Below are positions 2 to 38,529 of a stretch of DNA of 38,777 nt, one piece after another (the stretch's first letter is position 1; every line of letters begins with the position of its first letter). Source of the DNA: an uncultured Gammaproteobacteria bacterium. GTDB taxonomy: Bacteria; Patescibacteriota; Microgenomatia; Daviesbacterales; UBA10151. The notes below the pieces were generated by a model. That model had not been told where the DNA came from, made no database searches, and saw only the letters and a program-made list of their open reading frames with translations. Made by a program: the position numbers and the translations under genes. The stretch spans positions 1 to 38,777 of the forward strand of contig CAZZHC010000002.1 of the NCBI GenBank assembly GCA_964653745.1, in the 5' to 3' direction.

Positions 2-706
2 AAATATGAATATGATCCCCAATCTCCAATTATTAGAGGTTCCGCCTTGAAAGCTTTGGAAGGTGATGCTGAAGCTGTCAAAAGCATTGAAGAGCTGATG
101 GATGCTGTTGATGAGTGGATTCCACCTCCCACCCGCGATATTGATAAACCATTTTTAATGGCTGTTGAGGATGTCTTTTCAATTAAAGGCCGGGGAACAG
201 TAGTAACTGGAAGAATTGAACGGGGAAAAGTAAAAATTAATGAGGAAATTGAGATTGTGGGAATTAGGCCAACTAAAAAGAGTGTGGTGACAGGAATTGA
301 AATGTTTCACAAAATGCTTGATGAAGGCCAGGCTGGTGATAATGCCGGACTACTCCTTCGGGGTATTGAAAAAGATGATGTGGAACGTGGTCAGGTTTTG
401 GCCAAACCAGGTTCAATTACCCCTCATGCTGAATTTGAAGCTGAAGTCTATATTCTTTCTAAAGAAGAAGGTGGAAGACACACTCCATTTTTCAAAGGCT
501 ACAGACCACAATTTTATGTCAGAACCACTGATGTGACCGGTGAAGTACAGCTTCCAGAAGGTGTGGAAATGGCTATGCCAGGTGATACCACTAAAATGAA
601 TGTTAAACTAATTACTCCAGTTGCTATGGAAGATGGTTTAAGATTTGCTGTCCGTGAAGGTGGAAAAACAGTTGGAGCTGGAGTAATTACTAAGATTATT
701 AAATAG
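2..706 (+). CDS. tuf: elongation factor Tu, C-terminal part (5' end outside window)
   Basis: ORF is open to the left window edge in frame 2. Translation ([52 protein letters not shown]) matches EF-Tu domains II/III. It lies directly upstream of rpsJ. Confidence 0.97.
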
Positions 707-732
707 GGTTTTGGGTTTAGGTTTTAGGGCTT

Positions 733-757
733 AGAAGAGGCGAAAGCCTCTTTTTTA
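733..757 (+). terminator. rho-independent terminator after tuf
   Basis: Stem agaagaggc / gcctctttt closed by a GAAA tetraloop and running into a T-tract, 27 nt after the tuf stop. Confidence 0.8.
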
Positions 758-766
758 TGTTAAAAT
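758..766 (+). promoter_or_regulatory. extended -10-like promoter element (tgttaaaat) for rpsJ
   Basis: TGnTAAAAT motif 30 nt upstream of the rpsJ ATG. The same 9-mer recurs upstream of infA, and similar TGnTAnnnT motifs occur in other intergenic gaps. Confidence 0.4.
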
Positions 767-795
767 AGTTAGCACATTGAAAGGTTTAGTAATTT

Positions 796-1104
796 ATGGC
801 CAAAGGTAAAATTAGAGTTAGATTAACAAGCTTTGATCATCGGGTACTGGATAATACTGTTGAGCAGCTTTTAGATACTGCTATCAGAACCGGTGCCAAA
901 ATTGTTGGACCTATCCCACTTCCTACCAAAACTACCAGATTTACTGTTCCCCGTTCCCCTCACACTGATAAAGATTCCCAAGAAGCTTTTGAACTTAAAA
1001 CACACAAAAGATTAATAGAAATTGTTGAACCAACTGATAAGACAATCGACAGTCTTATGCATCTCGAGCTACCAGCGGGAGTTAACATAGAGGTTAAAAT
1101 GTAA
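796..1104 (+). CDS. rpsJ: 30S ribosomal protein S10
   Basis: 102-aa [22 protein letters not shown]...[26 protein letters not shown]10 family, in the canonical position after tuf. Confidence 0.97.
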
Positions 1105-1126
1105 GTCGATTGTCTTGCGATAGTTC

Positions 1127-1158
1127 CACCGCTTCGCGGTGTATAACTATCTAAAAAC
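1127..1158 (+). repeat. GC-rich hairpin (caccgc-ttc-gcggtg) followed by CTAAAAAC; member of an island-specific repeat family
   Basis: Perfect 6-bp inverted repeat at 1127-1141, with ctaaaaac at 1151-1158. The architecture resembles the units at 1345-1376, 2830-2855 and 2915-2940. Confidence 0.5.
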
Positions 1159-1219
1159 AATTGATTCGCTGATGCATCTTGAACTCCCTGCAGGTGTAAA
1201 TATTGAAGTAAAGATGTGA
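1154..1219 (+). pseudogene. displaced, out-of-frame duplicate of the last 21 codons plus stop of rpsJ
   Basis: Reads [21 protein letters not shown], identical in amino acids to rpsJ codons at 1039-1104. 17 of the 19 codons that can vary synonymously differ, and the stop is tga versus taa. It lies in frame 2 whereas rpsJ is in frame 1, and no start codon or RBS was found. Confidence 0.85.
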
Positions 1220-1233
1220 CCCTCTTTTGCTAT

Positions 1234-1251
1234 TGATTTTTTAAAAAATCA
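1234..1251. repeat. perfect 18-nt AT-rich palindrome tgattttttaaaaaatca
   Basis: Exact inverted repeat (9+9 nt, no spacer) 15 nt after the relic rpsJ stop. It could be an operator, a recombination site or a weak hairpin. Confidence 0.6.
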
Positions 1252-1344
1252 GTTGTAAAATAGTTTTTACTGTGTTTAGGATTAGACCAAAAATAAGATA
1301 TATAAAACAATATGCCTTTTTAGAAGGCAAAGAAGCTTAACAAG

Positions 1345-1376
1345 ACCCGCGCAAGCGGGTTTTTAAATGGCTAAAC
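1345..1376 (+). terminator. terminator-like hairpin (acccgc-GCAA-gcgggt + TTTT) followed by GGCTAAAC motif
   Basis: 6-bp GC stem with a GNRA loop and a T-run at 1345-1364, with ggctaaac at 1369-1376. It lies upstream of the Hsp70-like gene. Confidence 0.55.
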
Positions 1377-1406
1377 GGTATACAATAGAAAGGAAATGAT
1401 CACAAG

Positions 1407-2816
1407 ATGAAATTCGGTTTAGACTTTGGAACAACAAATAGTTCGATTTCTATAAATCAGGGTGGAAAAACTCGAGTAATTGAAGTAGATCAGGCTGCGC
1501 TGGATCAGAGGGTGATTCGCTCGATGCTTTACTTTCTAAGAAGAGAAATACTTTATGGGTCAAACGTGACTCCACAGCAAATACAATCTCAAACCTTTAA
1601 GGTTGGTGACATTCAATATCAAGGGAGGCAAGAACTTCTAATTGGTCAAGAAGCAATAGAATCTTATCTAAATGATAATAAACAAAGAAAACCTGGTATA
1701 AAGAGAACTATTTATACGGGTCGTTTTCGGAGAATGAAAGATAATCCTGATCAGCCCCGGACTGACCCAGTTCCTGAATATTATGAAGAAGTTGATTATG
1801 GAACGGGTAGGTTAATTCAAGCATTAAAATCCAGTTTGAGAACCTCTTTTAAGGGGACAACAATTTTTGGGCAATTTTATTCAGTTGAAGAATTAATCGG
1901 CATGTTTGTAAAAAAAATTAAGGAAAAAGCAGAAGCTGAAAATGGTTTAGCTATAGAAGAGATTACCATTGGTAGGCCAGTCCATTTTTCTTTAGACCCG
2001 GAGGTAGATCAAAAAGCTCAAAACCGTTTGGCAGTGGCAATGAAAACAGCCGGTTTTAAAAAACTTAAATTTGAATATGAACCTGTAGCAGCAGCTAAAC
2101 AATTTTTGGCCGCATCTAATCAAAAACAAACCATTTTTGTGTTTGATTTTGGGGGTGGAACTTTGGATACAGCCATAGTTAGATTTGGAGAAAAAATAGA
2201 AGTTTTGGCAACTGATGGGGTGTATATTGGTGGAGATTTACTAAATGCTGATATTATGCAACACACGCTTTGGGATTATTTTGGCGCTTCTTCTACTTGG
2301 GGTGAACAAAAGCTGCAAATGCCCAGTTATATCTATTCAGCTTTAAATTCTTGGTACAGCATTCCCTCACTAAATGGCCCTGATGTTATGAATTTCCTAG
2401 AGCGGGCGGGTTATAAAAACTCTAATCCCAAGGCTTTAGAAAGATTAATTTATCTTATTAAAACTAATGTTGGTTTTGAAATTTATGAGGCCATTGAAAA
2501 AGCTAAAAAACAGTTATCAGAAGAAAAAGAAGCACGGATTATTTATGATGATGGTCCAATTAACCTGGATTTGAAAATTACCAGAGATGAATTTGAAAAA
2601 ATAATTGCTCCCAGAGTTGAAGAAATAAAAGAAGTAGTGTTAAAAACATTGCAAATGGCAAAATTGGAAGGGAGTCAAATTGATATGGTAGTTAGAACTG
2701 GCGGGTCATCACTAATCCCAGTTTTTGAACACATTTTGGAAGATATTTTTGGCAAAGAAAAAATCACTTTATTTGAAACTTTTACCAGTATTGCCGCAGG
2801 ATTATCCCTAAGTTAA
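1407..2816 (+). CDS. Hsp70/actin-fold ATPase, nucleotide-binding-domain-only (YegD-like), no recognisable substrate-binding domain
   Basis: 469-aa ORF. It contains the N-terminal phosphate-1 motif MKFGLDFGTTNSSISI, the phosphate-2 motif FVFDFGGGTLDTAIV and the adenosine motif VVRTGGSSLIPVF, all typical of the DnaK/Hsp70 NBD. The length is too short for an SBD and lid. Confidence 0.85.
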   Translation: MKFGLDFGTTNSSISINQGGKTRVIEVDQAALDQRVIRSMLYFLRREILYGSNVTPQQIQSQTFKVGDIQYQGRQELLIGQEAIESYLNDNKQRKPGIKRTIYTGRFRRMKDNPDQPRTDPVPEYYEEVDYGTGRLIQALKSSLRTSFKGTTIFGQFYSVEELIGMFVKKIKEKAEAENGLAIEEITIGRPVHFSLDPEVDQKAQNRLAVAMKTAGFKKLKFEYEPVAAAKQFLAASNQKQTIFVFDFGGGTLDTAIVRFGEKIEVLATDGVYIGGDLLNADIMQHTLWDYFGASSTWGEQKLQMPSYIYSALNSWYSIPSLNGPDVMNFLERAGYKNSNPKALERLIYLIKTNVGFEIYEAIEKAKKQLSEEKEARIIYDDGPINLDLKITRDEFEKIIAPRVEEIKEVVLKTLQMAKLEGSQIDMVVRTGGSSLIPVFEHILEDIFGKEKITLFETFTSIAAGLSLS

Positions 2817-2829
2817 TTTGATTTGTGGG

Positions 2830-2855
2830 TCCACCTCGAAGGTGGAAGGCTAAAC
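2830..2855 (+). repeat. hairpin (tccacc-tcgaa-ggtgga) + AGGCTAAAC repeat unit R1
   Basis: Inverted repeat at 2830-2846. The 3' arm plus tail, ggtggaaggctaaac, is nearly identical to ggtggcaggctaaaaac at 2924-2940. Confidence 0.6.
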
Positions 2856-2864
2856 TTTTGTTTA

Positions 2865-2907
2865 TGCCCGCAGGTGTCCCGCTTCGCCCGCGAAGCGGGG
2901 CGAGCAA
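2865..2907 (+). repeat. long GC-rich hairpin (core cccgcttcg-cccg-cgaagcggg)
   Basis: 9-bp perfect stem at 2878-2899, extendable by tgcccgc/gcgagca with one mismatch. It shares ccgcttcgc with the hairpin at 1127-1141. Confidence 0.6.
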
Positions 2908-2914
2908 CCTAATT

Positions 2915-2940
2915 CACCCCTGGGGTGGCAGGCTAAAAAC
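2915..2940 (+). repeat. hairpin (caccc-ctg-gggtg) + CAGGCTAAAAAC repeat unit R2
   Basis: Direct-repeat partner of R1. Together they bracket the central hairpin within the 180-nt gap between the two island genes. Confidence 0.6.
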
Positions 2941-2996
2941 TGGGTATATTGTAATTTAAGTATGGTTTTGGTTTAATAGTCAATTAAGAAACTATT

Positions 2997-3344
2997 ATGC
3001 AAGAAAGACATGGTTTATCGGTTAGAGCGGTTTGTTTTAGTGAAATTGGTGGTGCTTTTAATCCTGCAACAGATGAGACAGATCCACAAAACAGCCCTGG
3101 TTTAGATTTATTATGGGCAGGAGCAAGACCCGGTCAGACTTTATCAGAAAAAGTAGAGGCAGTTTTAAATCGTTTGCCCTGGCGGCAAACAGTGATATTT
3201 GAACTAAGGCATGGTTTAGGTTCAGATGAACAAGAACATACACTGCGAGAGATAGCAGACCTTGTAAAATTACCCCTACCAAAGGTGTATAGGACTTTAA
3301 CTTTAGCACACCGGGCACTCTATAACTATTGCAACCCTAAATAG
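2997..3344 (+). CDS. stand-alone sigma-70 region 4-like HTH protein (possible sigma-factor fragment or regulator)
   Basis: 115-aa ORF. The C-terminal 70 aa (LSEKVEAVLNRLPWRQTVIFELRHGLGSDEQEHTLREIADLVKLPLPKVYRTLTLAHRAL) follow the region 4.1/4.2 pattern L..L..RE..V..LR.GL......TL.EI......S...V.....AL. No region 2 or 3 is present upstream. Confidence 0.6.
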   Translation: MQERHGLSVRAVCFSEIGGAFNPATDETDPQNSPGLDLLWAGARPGQTLSEKVEAVLNRLPWRQTVIFELRHGLGSDEQEHTLREIADLVKLPLPKVYRTLTLAHRALYNYCNPK

Positions 3345-3351
3345 CCTCTAC

Positions 3352-3381
3352 TTGCAATTTAGCCTCAACTCATGCTACAAT
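3352..3381 (+). promoter_or_regulatory. sigma-70-type promoter for the rplC-onward operon
   Basis: -35 ttgcaa (3352-3357), an 18-nt spacer and an extended -10 tgctacaat (3373-3381). It is located just after the island genes. Confidence 0.6.
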
Positions 3382-3533
3382 CCTTATAAGCCATGCAGAT
3401 GGTTTTTGAGACGTAAAAAAGAAAATAAATTTCAGTAAATCGCGTCCTTCGTCAGGACGTTGATACTGACTCAGGATAAACTGAGAGGTATCAGCGACTT
3501 GTCCTGAGGAACAAAGTGACGAAGGAAATACTG
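3382..3533 (+). promoter_or_regulatory. structured 5' leader RNA upstream of rplC with mutually exclusive pairings
   Basis: Hairpin H1 at 3443-3459 (cgtcct/aggacg) and hairpin H2 at 3462-3492 (gatac..ctcag/ctgag..gtatc). The segment tccttcgtca (3445-3454) can instead pair perfectly with tgacgaagga (3517-3526). Confidence 0.5.
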
Positions 3534-3566
3534 GAGTGAGTTCGTCTAGGCGACTCGCTCTTTTTT
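3534..3566 (+). terminator. intrinsic terminator/attenuator immediately upstream of rplC
   Basis: 8-bp stem gagtgagt/actcgctc (one G-U pair) at 3534-3560 followed by TTTTTT at 3561-3566. It ends 13 nt before the rplC ATG. Confidence 0.6.
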
Positions 3567-3578
3567 GTGGAAAAAGAC

Positions 3579-4319
3579 ATGATAAACACATTACTTGGTA
3601 TTAAAAAGAATATGACTAGCACTTATGATGCCCGGGGACGCCGGGTTGGTGCCACTGTGGTGGAAATTGGACCAAACTTTGTTACCCAAATTAAAGATAA
3701 AGAAAAAGATGGATATAGGGCAGTTCAGCTTGGATTTGGGACTAAAAAAAGTGTTAAAAAACCTCAAATCGGACATGCTAAAAAAGCAGGATTAGAGCAA
3801 AAAATCCGCTGGTTTAGGGAAGTTAAAGTTGAAGGTGGAGATGTTAAATCTGGCCAAGAAATTAAAGTGGGCCAGGTTTTTTCTATTGGAGATGCTATTA
3901 AGGTGACAGGTATTTCTAAGGGTCGGGGTTTTCAAGGTGGTGTGAGACGCCATGGTTTTGCCGGTGGACCCAAAACTCATGGTCAATCAGATAGATGGAG
4001 AGCTCCAGGTTCAATTGGGTCAGGTACTACTCCAGGTAGAGTTTTAAAGGGTAAAAGGATGGCAGGACATATGGGGGTAGAAACTGTGACAACCAGGGGT
4101 TTGGAAATAGTGGGAGTAGATAAAGCTAATAATTTACTCACTATTAAGGGGGCGGTACCAGGAGCAACAGGTGGTTTGGTAATTGTGGAAAAATTAGGCA
4201 GAATTAAGGGTTATACTCCCCCACCAGAGGAAAAACTAGATGAAGAAGAAGAGGTTAGTGAGTCAGAAAATAGTGAAGCAGTGAAACAGGAGGAGCAAAA
4301 TGCCAACAGTGAAAGCTAA
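3579..4319 (+). CDS. rplC: 50S ribosomal protein L3 (with acidic C-terminal tail)
   Basis: MINTLLGIKKNMTSTYDARGRRVGATVVEIGPN... matches the L3 N-terminus. ATG 3579 is preferred over the ORF-track GTG 3567. The tail is PPPEEKLDEEEEVSESENSEAVKQEEQ. Confidence 0.93.
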   Translation: MINTLLGIKKNMTSTYDARGRRVGATVVEIGPNFVTQIKDKEKDGYRAVQLGFGTKKSVKKPQIGHAKKAGLEQKIRWFREVKVEGGDVKSGQEIKVGQVFSIGDAIKVTGISKGRGFQGGVRRHGFAGGPKTHGQSDRWRAPGSIGSGTTPGRVLKGKRMAGHMGVETVTTRGLEIVGVDKANNLLTIKGAVPGATGGLVIVEKLGRIKGYTPPPEEKLDEEEEVSESENSEAVKQEEQNANSES

Positions 4320-35672: not shown

Positions 35673-36464
35673 ATGGATCAAACTTCAATAAATCAATTAC
35701 TTAATTTATCTGGCAAAACTGTCATTGTGACGGGTGGTGCAGCTGGGATTGGTTTGGGAATTTCTACTAGGCTTGCAGAAGCTCACGCCAATCTAGTAAT
35801 TGCTGATTTATCAGAAGAAGACTCTGGCAAAGCTGTCCAGGAATTTACGAATAAAGGATGGAAAGTAAAAGCAGTTAGGGCTGATATATCTTTGGAAGAT
35901 GATGTTAAAAATTTAGTTTCAGAAACTCTAAAAGAATTTGGGTCAGTTGATATTTTGGTCAACAATGCCGGAATTTATCCTTCAATACCTGTTTCTAAAA
36001 TGACCTTTGATGATTTTGATAAAATTTTGGCTGTAAATTTGGAGGGAGTATTTTTAACTACCAAATATGCTTCAGAACAAATGATTGCTCAAGGCAAGGG
36101 TGGGAAAATAATCAACATTACCTCAATTGATGCCATTCACCCTTCAATGGTGGGACTGGCAGCTTATGATGCTTCCAAACATGGGTTGTGGGGTTTTACT
36201 AAAAATTCTGCTTTGGAGCTTGCTCCCCATAAAATTTGGGTTAATGCCATAGCACCGGGAGGGATTGCCACCCCGGGGGTAGCAAAGATGCAAAGTGGTG
36301 CGCCGTCTTCTCAAGAAGTGGAAAATTTTATGTCTAAAATCCCCATGCACAGGATGGGGGAGCCGGATGATATTGGCAAGGTAGCACTCTTTTTGGCGTC
36401 TGATTTATCTTCCTATATGACAGGCAGTCAAATAGTGGTTGATGGTGGAGCACTTCTTTCTTAA
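35673..36464 (+). CDS. short-chain dehydrogenase/reductase (classical SDR)
   Basis: GKTVIVTGGAAGIGLGI, NNAG and YDASKHG (YxxxK). ATG 35673 is preferred to ORF-track 35622, which overlaps the ferredoxin gene. Confidence 0.9.
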   Translation: MDQTSINQLLNLSGKTVIVTGGAAGIGLGISTRLAEAHANLVIADLSEEDSGKAVQEFTNKGWKVKAVRADISLEDDVKNLVSETLKEFGSVDILVNNAGIYPSIPVSKMTFDDFDKILAVNLEGVFLTTKYASEQMIAQGKGGKIINITSIDAIHPSMVGLAAYDASKHGLWGFTKNSALELAPHKIWVNAIAPGGIATPGVAKMQSGAPSSQEVENFMSKIPMHRMGEPDDIGKVALFLASDLSSYMTGSQIVVDGGALLS

Positions 36465-36970
36465 TGGAAAAAAAGATTTTAATAGTCATCATTGTTTTTG
36501 TAGTTTTAGCTGCCCTGGTTTATCTACAACTTTCTAATAATAAAGAAAATCCTAATACACAGCTACTTGGCCAAGTTAATTTCCCCACCGCCTCTTCTCA
36601 AACTTCAACTTCTACCACCACTACTCCTAGTCCTACTGTAACTGTTAATCAATTGCAAATGGCAGATATTAAAATTGGTACCGGTTCGGCAGTTAAGTCG
36701 GGAGACACCGTTAAAATTAATTACGCGGGAACTTTAACAAATGGTCAAAAATTTGATAGCTCTTATGATCGGGGACAACCTTTTGAAACACAAATTGGGG
36801 TAGGAAAAGTTATCAAAGGTTGGGATTTAGGAGTTATAGGGATGAAGGTAGGAGGAAAAAGAAGGTTAATTATTCCACCAGATTTGGGTTATGGGGAAAA
36901 AGGTGTTGGGGGAGTTATCCCTCCCAATGCCACCCTGGTTTTTGACCTGGAACTTTTAGAAATTAAATAG
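36464..36970 (+). CDS. FKBP-type peptidyl-prolyl isomerase with N-terminal membrane anchor and S/T-rich linker
   Basis: YAGTLTNGQKFDSSYDRGQPFETQIGVGKVIKGWDLGVIGMKVGGKRRLIIPPDLGYG...LVFDLELLEI. Confidence 0.92.
   Translation: MEKKILIVIIVFVVLAALVYLQLSNNKENPNTQLLGQVNFPTASSQTSTSTTTTPSPTVTVNQLQMADIKIGTGSAVKSGDTVKINYAGTLTNGQKFDSSYDRGQPFETQIGVGKVIKGWDLGVIGMKVGGKRRLIIPPDLGYGEKGVGGVIPPNATLVFDLELLEIK
36942..36970 (+). repeat. direct repeat copy 1 (functional 3' end of the FKBP gene)
   Basis: ttgacctggaacttttagaaattaaatag. 27 of 29 nt are identical to 38456-38484. Confidence 0.9.
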
Positions 36971-36991
36971 ACCTAATCTCTATTTGACGTG

Positions 36992-37000
36992 TGCTATACT
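36992..37000 (+). promoter_or_regulatory. extended -10-like element tgctatact, 7 nt before the ATG at 37007 (possible leaderless mRNA)
   Basis: TGnTATACT inside the insert. ttgacg lies at 36984-36989, which is too close to serve as a -35. Confidence 0.4.
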
Positions 37001-37006
37001 ACTTTT

Positions 37007-38386
37007 ATGTCCGAGGGTTCCTTTTCACCAGAATTACCTAAAGAACAAAAAGCAGCAATCCGTGAATTTACCAAATCTACTCCAGAAGGTAGACAAGCTA
37101 GGAATGATGCTGCCGAAGATATCCTTGGTCAAAGAAGTGAAGCCAGACAATCGCGGCAAAAACAAAGAGATTATTTAATAGATAGACAAACAGATAACCA
37201 ACAAAACCGGGCAGATGCAGAAGCAAAAAAGGTAGAGGCAGAAAATCGGCTTTTATACTTAAAAGCTGAATTGGTTGACAGGTCTACATCCTGGCTTGCG
37301 CGGGCACGCGCATTGGTTAGTAGGAGTTTTAGAGAAGAAGCTTGGAAGCTACAAAAACAACTACCTGAACTTGAATACGGCCTGGAGAGACAAAATATGT
37401 CTCTGAAGATACAACGGGAAACTTATCAACGAGAGTTGTTTGTTTTAGAAAAGAAATTTAATGAACTTTCTCGGTGGCATAAAACTCATCCACTTGTTGG
37501 TAAAAAAACTTTACAAAAGTTTTATGGGCAACAATGGGGCTTACTTAAAGATCAACGACAATCTTTAGAAGAACAAAGACAAAAGGCAGAACTTGAACGT
37601 TACAAACAAGAGCATGGCACTGTAGCAGAAGTTACAGATAGATATCAAGGTTATATTGTCCACGGTATAACTCCAGGATTTGGTGGTGCTAATAACATGG
37701 TGTTAGAAGATACGGCTAGCTGGGCAGATAAATTGATGGTTATTGTGGCTGAACGACCACCTCTTTCTGCCTCATTTGTTAAAAAAGGCAATGGTCCCCA
37801 GCACTTATGGAGCCCAATAGGTGTTGTGATTCAAAGCGGTATTATAGCTGAAGCAGAGGGTGGAGATTTAGGATCATTGGCGGTGGACAAAAAGACTAAA
37901 AAAGGGAAGGACCCGAAAAATATTATGAGGTATCAACAAAGTTTAGAAAGAGCCGTAGCAAAAAATAATGCTCATATATCTTCGGGTTGGCATAATGAAG
38001 TAATTTTAGAATTTGGACTCAAAGTAGGTGGAGTCTATATTAATTTAGATCAAGGTGGAGATACTATTTTTGACAATAAGGGAATGAGATTTGAATCCGG
38101 AAACCTCAAGCGTGCTGCAGGTGGTACTGGTGAAATTATAAACCGGCTTGATAGAATTGAATATGAAGATATTTATGAGACTGCAAGTATTGTCGGTTTA
38201 CCTGTTGTTGTTTTGAAAAATGGCATTTTGTATGAAAGTTCATATGACCCAACTCGAGGGTTAACTGTGGGGAGAGAATTATCCCCTAGAGAAATCACCG
38301 CCAGCCCAACAGAGATTCCAAATGAAAATATACCAGGGGTACAAAAAAGAGCAAACTCTGTTTTAAAGACTGTAGCAGTTTATTAA
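37007..38386 (+). CDS. hypothetical protein: ~210-aa coiled-coil N-terminal half plus ~245-aa unrecognised globular C-terminal domain
   Basis: Uninterrupted ORF of 459 aa from ATG 37007 (track start GTG 36989). The N-terminal half is rich in R, Q, E and K with heptad-like periodicity. The C-terminal half (GYIVHGITPGFGGANNM...GGDLGS...GGTGEI) matches no family I recognise. Confidence 0.65.
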   Translation: MSEGSFSPELPKEQKAAIREFTKSTPEGRQARNDAAEDILGQRSEARQSRQKQRDYLIDRQTDNQQNRADAEAKKVEAENRLLYLKAELVDRSTSWLARARALVSRSFREEAWKLQKQLPELEYGLERQNMSLKIQRETYQRELFVLEKKFNELSRWHKTHPLVGKKTLQKFYGQQWGLLKDQRQSLEEQRQKAELERYKQEHGTVAEVTDRYQGYIVHGITPGFGGANNMVLEDTASWADKLMVIVAERPPLSASFVKKGNGPQHLWSPIGVVIQSGIIAEAEGGDLGSLAVDKKTKKGKDPKNIMRYQQSLERAVAKNNAHISSGWHNEVILEFGLKVGGVYINLDQGGDTIFDNKGMRFESGNLKRAAGGTGEIINRLDRIEYEDIYETASIVGLPVVVLKNGILYESSYDPTRGLTVGRELSPREITASPTEIPNENIPGVQKRANSVLKTVAVY

Positions 38387-38455
38387 AAATAAGTCCATGT
38401 CAACTTTTAAATCTAATAATCTTATTATCATACCGAGCTTGCCTAAGTGCCAGAA

Positions 38456-38484
38456 TTGACCTGGAACTTTTAAAAATTAAATAA
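38456..38484 (+). repeat. direct repeat copy 2 (relic FKBP 3' end)
   Basis: ttgacctggaacttttaaaaattaaataa would read DLELLKIK* against DLELLEIK* in the gene. Weaker similarity extends about 12 nt upstream (cctaagtgcca vs cccaatgcca). Confidence 0.9.
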
Positions 38485-38529
38485 AGGCTGTAATTAAACG
38501 TGTTATTACCAGGACTTGAATAAATCGTT

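Follow-up and report, generated by a model that had tools for sequence, protein, structure and literature searches.

The stretch of DNA analysed here, referred to as the window, comprises 38,777 nt from an uncultured bacterium that related loci place in Candidatus Daviesbacteria (Microgenomates), a lineage of the candidate phyla radiation (CPR). It carries near its start the ribosomal protein gene rpsJ, the last 21 codons of which are present twice. Coordinates given without a locus number are forward-strand positions in the window, and rpsJ, its second end and the Hsp70/YegD-like gene with its leader lie on the forward strand. From the window start the gene order is tuf (to 706), rpsJ (796-1104), an Hsp70/YegD-like gene (1407-2816) and a small open reading frame (ORF) resembling region 4 of sigma-70 (2997-3344), followed by rplC-rplD-rplW-rplB and the remainder of the ribosomal protein cluster. 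As currently read, rpsJ encodes a ribosomal protein S10 of 102 amino acids, an assignment based on the Pfam family Ribosomal_S10 (E = 6e-35) and on the neighbourhood of tuf upstream and rplC-rplD-rplW-rplB downstream.

The doubled end of rpsJ

The first 81 codons of rpsJ (796-1038) represent the resident gene body, as judged from third-position identity to the nearest relative, L163 (L numbers designate the loci used for comparison). They lead in frame into 21 codons and a TAA stop (c1, 1039-1104), which codon usage and the small number of codons in common with relatives mark as probably foreign. Behind c1 follows a spacer of 49 nt (1105-1153) without a match in Rfam, which would be the foreign 3' flank that arrived together with c1. 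A second rpsJ end of 21 codons and a TGA stop (c2, 1154-1219) lies in frame 2, out of frame with the gene and presumably untranslated; it is detected by an nhmmer tail profile (E = 4e-15) and appears to be the orphaned resident end. The DNA behind it (1220-1253) is likely the resident 3' flank of rpsJ, as it matches the post-stop DNA of L005.

Both copies encode the identical 21-residue peptide, c1 in the rpsJ frame and c2 in frame 2, and a tblastn search with S10 matched c2 at 100% identity over residues 82-102 (E = 1.6e-8). The two copies start 115 nt apart and are identical at 46 of 66 bases. Nineteen of the 20 differences fall within the 63 sense bases, and none of them is non-synonymous. 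Only ACA (Thr83) and CAT (His89) are in common among the 19 non-Met codons, the other 17 being different; serine is encoded by AGT versus TCG, the stop codon is TAA versus TGA, and the longest common block, ATGCATCT, measures 8 nt. The preliminary description of this DNA, in which 21 rpsJ codons were reported to be doubled 49 nt apart with the same peptide, is thereby confirmed. The frame of c2 is open only from position 1124 and offers neither a plausible start codon nor a ribosome-binding site.

The tandem arrangement is real and not a one-off assembly error; 441 nt across the feature are 100% identical in a contig of a metagenome-assembled genome at NCBI (GCA_016198265.1, L001) and in the Logan assembly of run SRR12113383 (L002). 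A search for tRNA and tmRNA genes returned nothing, and no Rfam family reached its gathering score in the whole window, with chance-level matches only in the region 700-3700.

Resident and incoming copy

Three independent lines point to c2 as the resident end and to c1 with the following 49 nt (1039-1153) as an inserted foreign rpsJ end: the flank of c2, the codon match to relatives and the codon usage. They support the earlier proposal that 1039-1153 is the incoming piece and 1154-1219 the native end that was pushed out of frame. The first line concerns the DNA 3' of c2, which starts with CCCTCTTTTGC and resembles the post-stop sequence CCTTCTTTTGC of L005, a locus whose tail is also the closest to c2 (57/66). 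In L016, the sequence immediately behind the rpsJ stop codon, which runs on into the orthologue of the Hsp70-like gene, aligns with window positions 1254-1420. The second line comes from the comparison of rpsJ 3' ends with those of relatives, in which c2 is the copy that matches the nearest of them. The nearest S10, that of the single-tailed L163 (91% at the amino-acid level), has 10/18 synonymous codons in common with c2 versus 3/18 with c1, and the corresponding counts for L085 are 10/18 and 2/18. Third positions match those of L163 at 12/21 sites in c2 and 6/21 in c1, compared with 58% in the gene body. The third line is codon usage, in which c2 fits the genome and c1 is atypical: c1 falls in the lowest 0.2% of 1365 windows of 21 codons taken from the window's housekeeping genes (P = 5e-5 against recodings at genome usage), whereas c2 lies at the 11th percentile of the same set, inside the genome range. 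Codons typical of c1 are ATC, GAC, CTC, GAG, CTA, GCG, AAC and ATA.

The extent of the incoming piece can be judged from the gene body. Its third-position identity to L163 stays at about 58% up to about codon 79 and does not drop before codon 80, so that the foreign piece would essentially correspond to 1039-1153, that is 115 bp made up of the tail and 49 nt.

Although c2 is untranslated, none of the 20 differences changes an amino acid, and therefore the two copies must, as judged from their sequences, have diverged in separate genomes while each served as a working gene end, and have been joined recently. This agrees with the previous suggestion that both had been functional rpsJ ends, which the absence of replacement changes supports. 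The two copies differ more than a random pair of tails would. Between species, Daviesbacteria tails are at synonymous saturation, with a mean of 51.5/66 identical bases independent of the similarity of the gene bodies, and only 4.8% of 351 in-frame tail pairs are as different as c1 and c2. Random synonymous recoding yields two or fewer codons in common with c2 with P = 0.0004 under genome usage and P = 0.02 under uniform codon choice. The copies of L017, a second locus with a doubled end, are identical at 49/66 bases and have 8/18 codons in common (hand count), and neither L017 nor L007, a third such locus, displays excess divergence. The excess in the window pair is thus modest (P about 0.02-0.05), and foreign codon usage together with the survival of only dissimilar repeats would explain it. 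Near-maximal recoding as a design feature, as initially suggested, is unneeded, given the saturated tails, the modest excess and its lack in L017 and L007. We also considered that the tail might be unusually diverged relative to the gene body; this was rejected in a per-window analysis as an effect of amino-acid composition (0.41 for the tail, 0.42-0.58 for other windows).

Recurrence in Daviesbacteria and the structure of the junction

Across 164 loci scanned by six-frame translation, sensitive tblastn and the nhmmer tail profile, second rpsJ ends were found only in the window, L017, L007, L014 and L009. They are confined to Daviesbacteria-type loci (5/24 versus 0/101 others, Fisher P = 1.8e-4), and in 5/5 cases the in-frame copy lies upstream and the orphan downstream. 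In the window and in L017 the junction is at Lys82, with spacers of 49 and 52 nt, respectively, and intact orphans. L007 is joined at Ser86; its insert of 566 nt, which carries two promoter-like modules besides a sigma-region-4 ORF, precedes an intact orphan of 17 amino acids. In L014 the junction lies at about Met88, and the insert of about 640 nt carries an ORFan; the orphan has H-to-R and E-to-K changes, while its last 21 nt are identical to the in-frame copy. L009 is joined at Glu78, with an insert of about 370 nt containing a sigma-region-4-like ORF and an orphan decayed by indels and stop codons. The junctions therefore lie at codons 82, 82, 86, about 88 and 78, and the inserts are unrelated in content. 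The five inserts and the DNA adjoining them yielded no integrase, recombinase or nuclease domain, and homing nuclease domains (LAGLIDADG, GIY-YIG, HNH, PD-(D/E)XK) were likewise lacking from all five. The cargo ORF of L014 and the sigma-like ORF of L007 each matched only itself in a large protein database. Candidate microhomologies at the joint of the window are AACT and, alternatively, the hairpin arm of 11 nt; at that of L007 the candidate is ATTCT.

The in-frame ends of L017 (1635-1697) and L009 (4244-4306), which belong to two different clades, terminate in the rare ...GVDIEIKT (1/120 nearest S10 clusters), whereas their orphans keep the clade-usual ...VKM. The IKT ends have apparently been imported. 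At the DNA level the two IKT tails are identical at 51/66 positions (hand count), so that a common origin, if any, would be old. Among about 57 Daviesbacteria-like tails, a start with AAG rather than AAA is more often combined with ATA for Ile98 and with an ORF within 25 nt. This hints at AAG/ATA tail 'haplotypes' that travel with downstream genes, as seen in hand counts on a smaller set with uncontrolled phylogeny.

A scan of the window for orphan ends behind other conserved genes revealed a comparable layout at an FKBP-type peptidyl-prolyl isomerase gene (36464-36970). Its last approximately 28 nt (36942-36970) recur at 38456-38485, 1514 nt downstream, with 27/28 identity, the in-frame end encoding DLELLEIK* and the downstream copy DLELLKIK*. 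The two copies flank an insert of about 1.5 kb (36971-38455) with an ORF of 465 amino acids (36989-38386), which has no family match and possesses its own promoter-like site. The layout follows the same design as that of rpsJ, namely gene, in-frame end, inserted DNA and orphan end.

The junction in the window has a structure of its own. Directly behind the stop codon of c1, GTCGATTGTCTT (1105-1116) repeats the opening 12 nt of c1 (1039-1050) perfectly in inverted orientation. The spacer also provides the 5' arm of a long hairpin (1104-1167) with an inner G+C hairpin at 1127-1141 and a 3' arm at 1145-1164, the latter consisting of the DNA just before c2 and the first 11 nt of c2. The RNA fold of 1104-1167 has a predicted energy of -27.6 kcal/mol (z = -6.5, with 0/200 shuffles equally stable), and the GC hairpin noticed earlier in the spacer is real and bigger than first described. 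The 211-nt region is also more stable than its shuffles (z = -3.7). No U-tract follows the hairpin, and it was not called by a terminator scan. When the start of the tail is paired with the DNA behind the stop codon, the duplex reaches -22.3 kcal/mol and ranks first of 95 windows across rpsJ. The same pairing likewise takes first place among 95 in L017 and in L007 and second place in L091, a locus with a single tail, and its bases covary: ACA ATC / GATTGT in the window, ACT AT / ATAGT in L017 and ACC AAA GA / TCTTTGGT in L091. In the latter, a short contig, the post-stop sequence ATCTTGTCTTAAGGTCTTTGG (1640-1670) is complementary to the locus's own unusual tail start AAG ACC AAA GAT, with a duplex energy of -17 kcal/mol. 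The tail-enclosing stem may thus pre-exist in some lineages. TTGTCTT directly follows the stop codon both in the spacer and in the rpsJ 3' flank of L091, and in tails with AGY serine codons the codons for Lys82-Leu87 are quasi-palindromic. The folds of L017 (z = -2.1) and L091 (z = 0.1) are weak, and between the spacer and the insert of L017 nothing is conserved beyond CGATAGT. A repeated element, such as a miniature inverted-repeat transposable element or a repetitive extragenic palindrome, was rejected as the identity of the spacer, which the window contains only once and which, of the loci compared, is found solely in the same-genome contigs L001 and L002. The 3' flank of L010 was rejected as a donor-type structure; despite two 8-mers in common with the spacer, it is unstructured and fails to align.

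The gap between rpsJ and rplC, in which these junctions lie, is a general insertion hot spot. In Daviesbacteria (L003-L018, L083-L099) it spans 130 nt at the shortest and over 4 kb at the longest, with unrelated ORFs inside; in other Patescibacteria rplC is located within about 80-250 nt of rpsJ. Gap ORFs include a GIY-YIG-like gene in L003 (4420-4692, minus strand), a locus without a double tail, an IS200/RAYT-like pseudogene in L006 (4330-5004, minus strand) and an IS transposase fragment in L008 (4879-5169, minus strand). The Hsp70/YegD-like gene of the window (1407-2816; Pfam HSP70, 2.6e-34; NCBIfam PRK11678, 4.9e-46) has orthologues with 60-65% identity in the same gap of L011, L014 and L016, a level similar to that of ribosomal protein L3, and is therefore regarded as an old gap resident that lies outside the insertion. 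Its leader (1254-1406, of which 1262-1406 has counterparts at 4310-4457 in L016 and ahead of the Hsp70-like gene in L011 and L014) is associated with a promoter-like site (1233-1261) and a terminator-like hairpin (1345-1366), the latter conserved in L016, L011 and L014. In this leader a small hairpin is followed by the invariant terminator-like ACCCGCGnAAGCGGG, a T-run and ATGG, without a match in Rfam. The conserved hairpin could act as the rpsJ terminator or as an attenuator.

Stand-alone small proteins made up of little else than sigma-70 region 4 also recur in the gap (window 2997-3344, L007 4322-4639, L009 4313-4693). The L007 protein matches Pfam Sigma70_r4 (3.7e-10); it is homologous to the window protein, at 28% identity, and the two have a TDPQN motif in common. 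These genes adjoin promoter-like modules. Upstream of the ORF in the window, CACCnnnnnGGTGnnnnGCTAAA, a hairpin with GCTAAA, occurs twice (2832-2854 and 2915-2937), compared with 0.04 occurrences expected by chance. A related module, AGCTTGACAC..GGTG..CTAAATATT, is found in L007 (4658-4687 and 4834-4863) and L017 (2178-2207) and looks like a -35/-10 promoter with a hairpin between the two elements. One of the L007 copies abuts the orphan rpsJ end.

Probable displacement by recombination and its alternatives

We consider it likely that a horizontally acquired rpsJ 3' end, consisting of 21 codons, the stop codon and a flank of 49 nt, recombined at Lys82 and displaced the resident end in an event of the homology-facilitated illegitimate recombination (HFIR) or microhomology type. 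The foreign 115-nt piece (1039-1153) would have entered the resident gene at this codon, leaving rpsJ with an end of foreign DNA that encodes the same peptide, whereas the resident end would have moved 115 nt downstream, out of frame but still on its native flank. Donor DNA from another Daviesbacteria or Microgenomates cell could have found its partner in the conserved part of the rpsJ coding region that immediately precedes codon 82, and short or illegitimate homology would have served to attach its other side, out of register, where the resident tail begins. The outcome would be a 'C-terminal displacement'. Natural competence has been shown within the CPR for Saccharibacteria (PMC10633639). 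The 3' arm of the hairpin possibly supplied the short homology for the right-hand join, because this arm, by the way the hairpin is built, almost copies the start of the tail. The stem is perhaps native to the donor-type 3' flank, and use of its distal arm as homology would also explain the two junctions at Lys82. The arrangement may persist because identical blocks in the two copies do not exceed 8 nt, which prevents loss by recombination between them. Scars in at least four other species would stem from repetition of this displacement in the hypervariable rpsJ-rplC gap. A join beyond the stop codon would merely add genes to the gap, and double tails would arise from joins inside the resident tail; the hypervariability of the gap would thus be accounted for.

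Several observations weigh against displacement by recombination. A long homologous anchor should leave a foreign tract in rpsJ upstream of codon 82, and none was seen; this would favour a short-homology event over a long anchor, and the anchor may have been short or since repaired. The donor of c1 was not found in a comparison of whole and half tails against 110 unique ones, in which L021 gave the best partial match (31/33 over the 3' half); after about 109 comparisons this is not significant. Both copies in the window carry Asn97, which is rare in close relatives (2/120 nearest S10 clusters) and common in sister families, for example in L019-21, L100, L102, L104 and L105; this requires either a donor from an Asn-bearing lineage or a later D-to-N change. 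Simple illegitimate recombination would not lead one to expect a perfect 12-nt inverted repeat and a 60-nt hairpin at the junction. Exactly the same junction, Lys82, occurs in two of the five events. Three of five orphans are free of amino-acid changes, many for neutral relics; this implies that the events are recent and turnover is fast, or that the orphan is under some constraint. The earlier idea that the 115-bp segment, or a larger element ending in it, might be traced in metagenomes met with no success, as the scan yielded neither further double tails nor a spacer-like flank.

An unlikely alternative is a site-specific mobile element, either an integrase island or a homing-endonuclease cassette, that inserted at the rpsJ 3' end with a recoded replacement end and has since been mostly deleted in the window. 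It would explain why one gene was hit in five lineages, why the window and L017 have in common the Lys82 junction and a layout of a 49-52-nt spacer with an inverted repeat, and why cargo ORFs lie between the copies at three loci. The difference between c1 and c2 beyond random recoding and the 27/28-identical direct repeats at the FKBP gene, which resemble att sites, also fit such an element. Moreover, integrative and conjugative elements (ICEs) as well as integrative and mobilizable elements (IMEs) have been found to integrate in the 3' ends of ribosomal protein genes, those of streptococci in rpsI, rplL and rpmG (PMC4701971, PMC5357655). However, no integrase, recombinase or nuclease domain is present in or next to the five inserts, the L014 cargo is an ORFan, the junctions lie at four different codons, the inserts have no common sequence, and a scan of viral contigs found none that carries an rpsJ tail; together these results argue against a site-specific element. 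In addition, an identical core of more than 8 nt is lacking in the window, and the divergence in L017 and L007 is ordinary rather than maximal. A diversity-generating retroelement was rejected as well: the differences are of all base types and all synonymous, and no reverse transcriptase is found among the ORFs of the region.

A more speculative proposal, to which we give little weight, is a dedicated cassette-insertion mechanism in Daviesbacteria that lands at the 3' ends of housekeeping genes (rpsJ, perhaps FKBP), brings its own replacement ends and is silent for the host. The palindromic junction at Lys82 would then be the recombination site, and the sigma-70-region-4 proteins of the gap would belong to the machinery or to its control. 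The unexplained structure of the junction leaves a modest chance of such a mechanism, and if the hairpin is indeed a recombination site, a new insertion mechanism would be indicated.

It is rather improbable that the arrangement is maintained as RNA, with the hairpin pairing with the start of c1 or c2 and serving as a translation-sensing stabiliser, processing site or attenuator. The orphan would then be retained as a hairpin arm; this concerns maintenance and not origin, and is compatible with displacement by recombination. The high stability of the hairpin and of the 211-nt region, the top ranks of the pairing between tail start and post-stop DNA, whose bases change in step, and the three intact orphans are in line with such a role. 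Yet the hairpin takes in no more than the first 11 nt of c2 and therefore cannot account for the intactness of all 21 codons. Apart from the short motif mentioned above, the window and L017 show no conservation of the spacer; a U-tract and an Rfam family are lacking, most single-tail relatives have no similar structure, the folds of L017 and L091 are weak, and the orphans of L009 and L014 are decaying.

Local tandem duplication of the resident tail with subsequent divergence in place is highly improbable. The rare Asn97 in both copies and their tandem position only 49 nt apart would be expected from it, but 20/20 synonymous differences with one copy untranslated practically exclude it, since about three quarters of random changes are non-synonymous and the outcome would have a probability of about 1e-11 under neutrality. 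The match of c2 to relatives, the foreign codon usage of c1 and a spacer that is not a copy of the DNA after c2 speak in the same direction, in agreement with the preliminary description. Least credible of all is an assembly artefact that joined two strain variants in tandem, as might be suspected of metagenomic data, in view of three assemblies from different pipelines that are identical across the region, the unique 49-nt spacer and analogous structures in the genomes of four other species, including contigs of 18-58 kb.

Altogether, these observations indicate that foreign DNA enters even the core cluster of ribosomal protein genes in CPR bacteria and that gene ends can be swapped silently. 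Phylogenomic studies use rpsJ as a standard marker, so that chimeric ends and orphaned pieces of it are relevant both to trees built on marker genes and to the calling of genes. The scars at the five loci form a natural series, in which the orphans range from intact to decayed and the inserts from 49 to 640 nt, useful for studying gene insertion beside conserved anchors in small-genome, probably competent bacteria, and they may explain why the rpsJ-rplC gap is hypervariable in the Daviesbacteria lineage only.

Doubled gene ends are known from several other systems. The element SXT integrates at prfC, and the preliminary description had drawn a parallel to it. With SXT, as with the ICEs and IMEs, the gene end is doubled and the working end comes from the incoming DNA, which resembles the situation at rpsJ; the ICEs and IMEs also target ribosomal protein genes. 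These elements differ in having an integrase beside the att site, near-identical attL and attR cores and a fixed crossover, none of which occurs at rpsJ; with only 49 nt between the copies, no integrase or nuclease, variable junctions and a longest common block of 8 nt, the parallel is not supported. In mitochondrial atp6 of Allomyces macrogynus, a free-standing homing endonuclease was reportedly inserted together with a foreign C-terminus of the host gene (Paquin, Laforest and Lang in 1994). There, too, a foreign in-frame C-terminal piece replaces the native one and an untranslated remnant lies downstream; such cases carry an endonuclease ORF, whereas no nuclease was found in the five Daviesbacteria inserts.

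Another related process is the short-patch double illegitimate recombination of Acinetobacter baylyi, in which short foreign single-stranded DNA is integrated at microhomologies on both sides (bioRxiv 10.1101/2023.11.22.568220). This process does without a long homologous anchor and would fit the missing donor tract upstream of codon 82, although the events described there are microindel mutations of variable size and the insert in the window measures 115 nt. A displacement model of the HFIR type has been proposed for orphan 3' ends at loci of type VI secretion systems (T6SS) and Rhs proteins (PMC5361080), and C-terminal displacement at Rhs, CdiA and T6SS effector loci is attributed to HFIR (PMC5361080, and Jackson et al. 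2009, cited there as PMC2935791). In these systems, as proposed for rpsJ, the incoming DNA contains a conserved upstream part of the gene and a new 3' end (PMC5361080), the old 3' end is left downstream as an orphan, and repeated events build a variable region behind a conserved gene. They differ in that their new tip is a different toxin with its immunity gene, under selection for diversity, whereas at rpsJ an essential ribosomal gene keeps the same peptide, the exchange is silent at the protein level and only 49 nt came along in the window. The rpsJ feature appears to be a recurrent, lineage-specific recombination scar of a known kind, and a new example of it in an essential ribosomal protein gene of the CPR.

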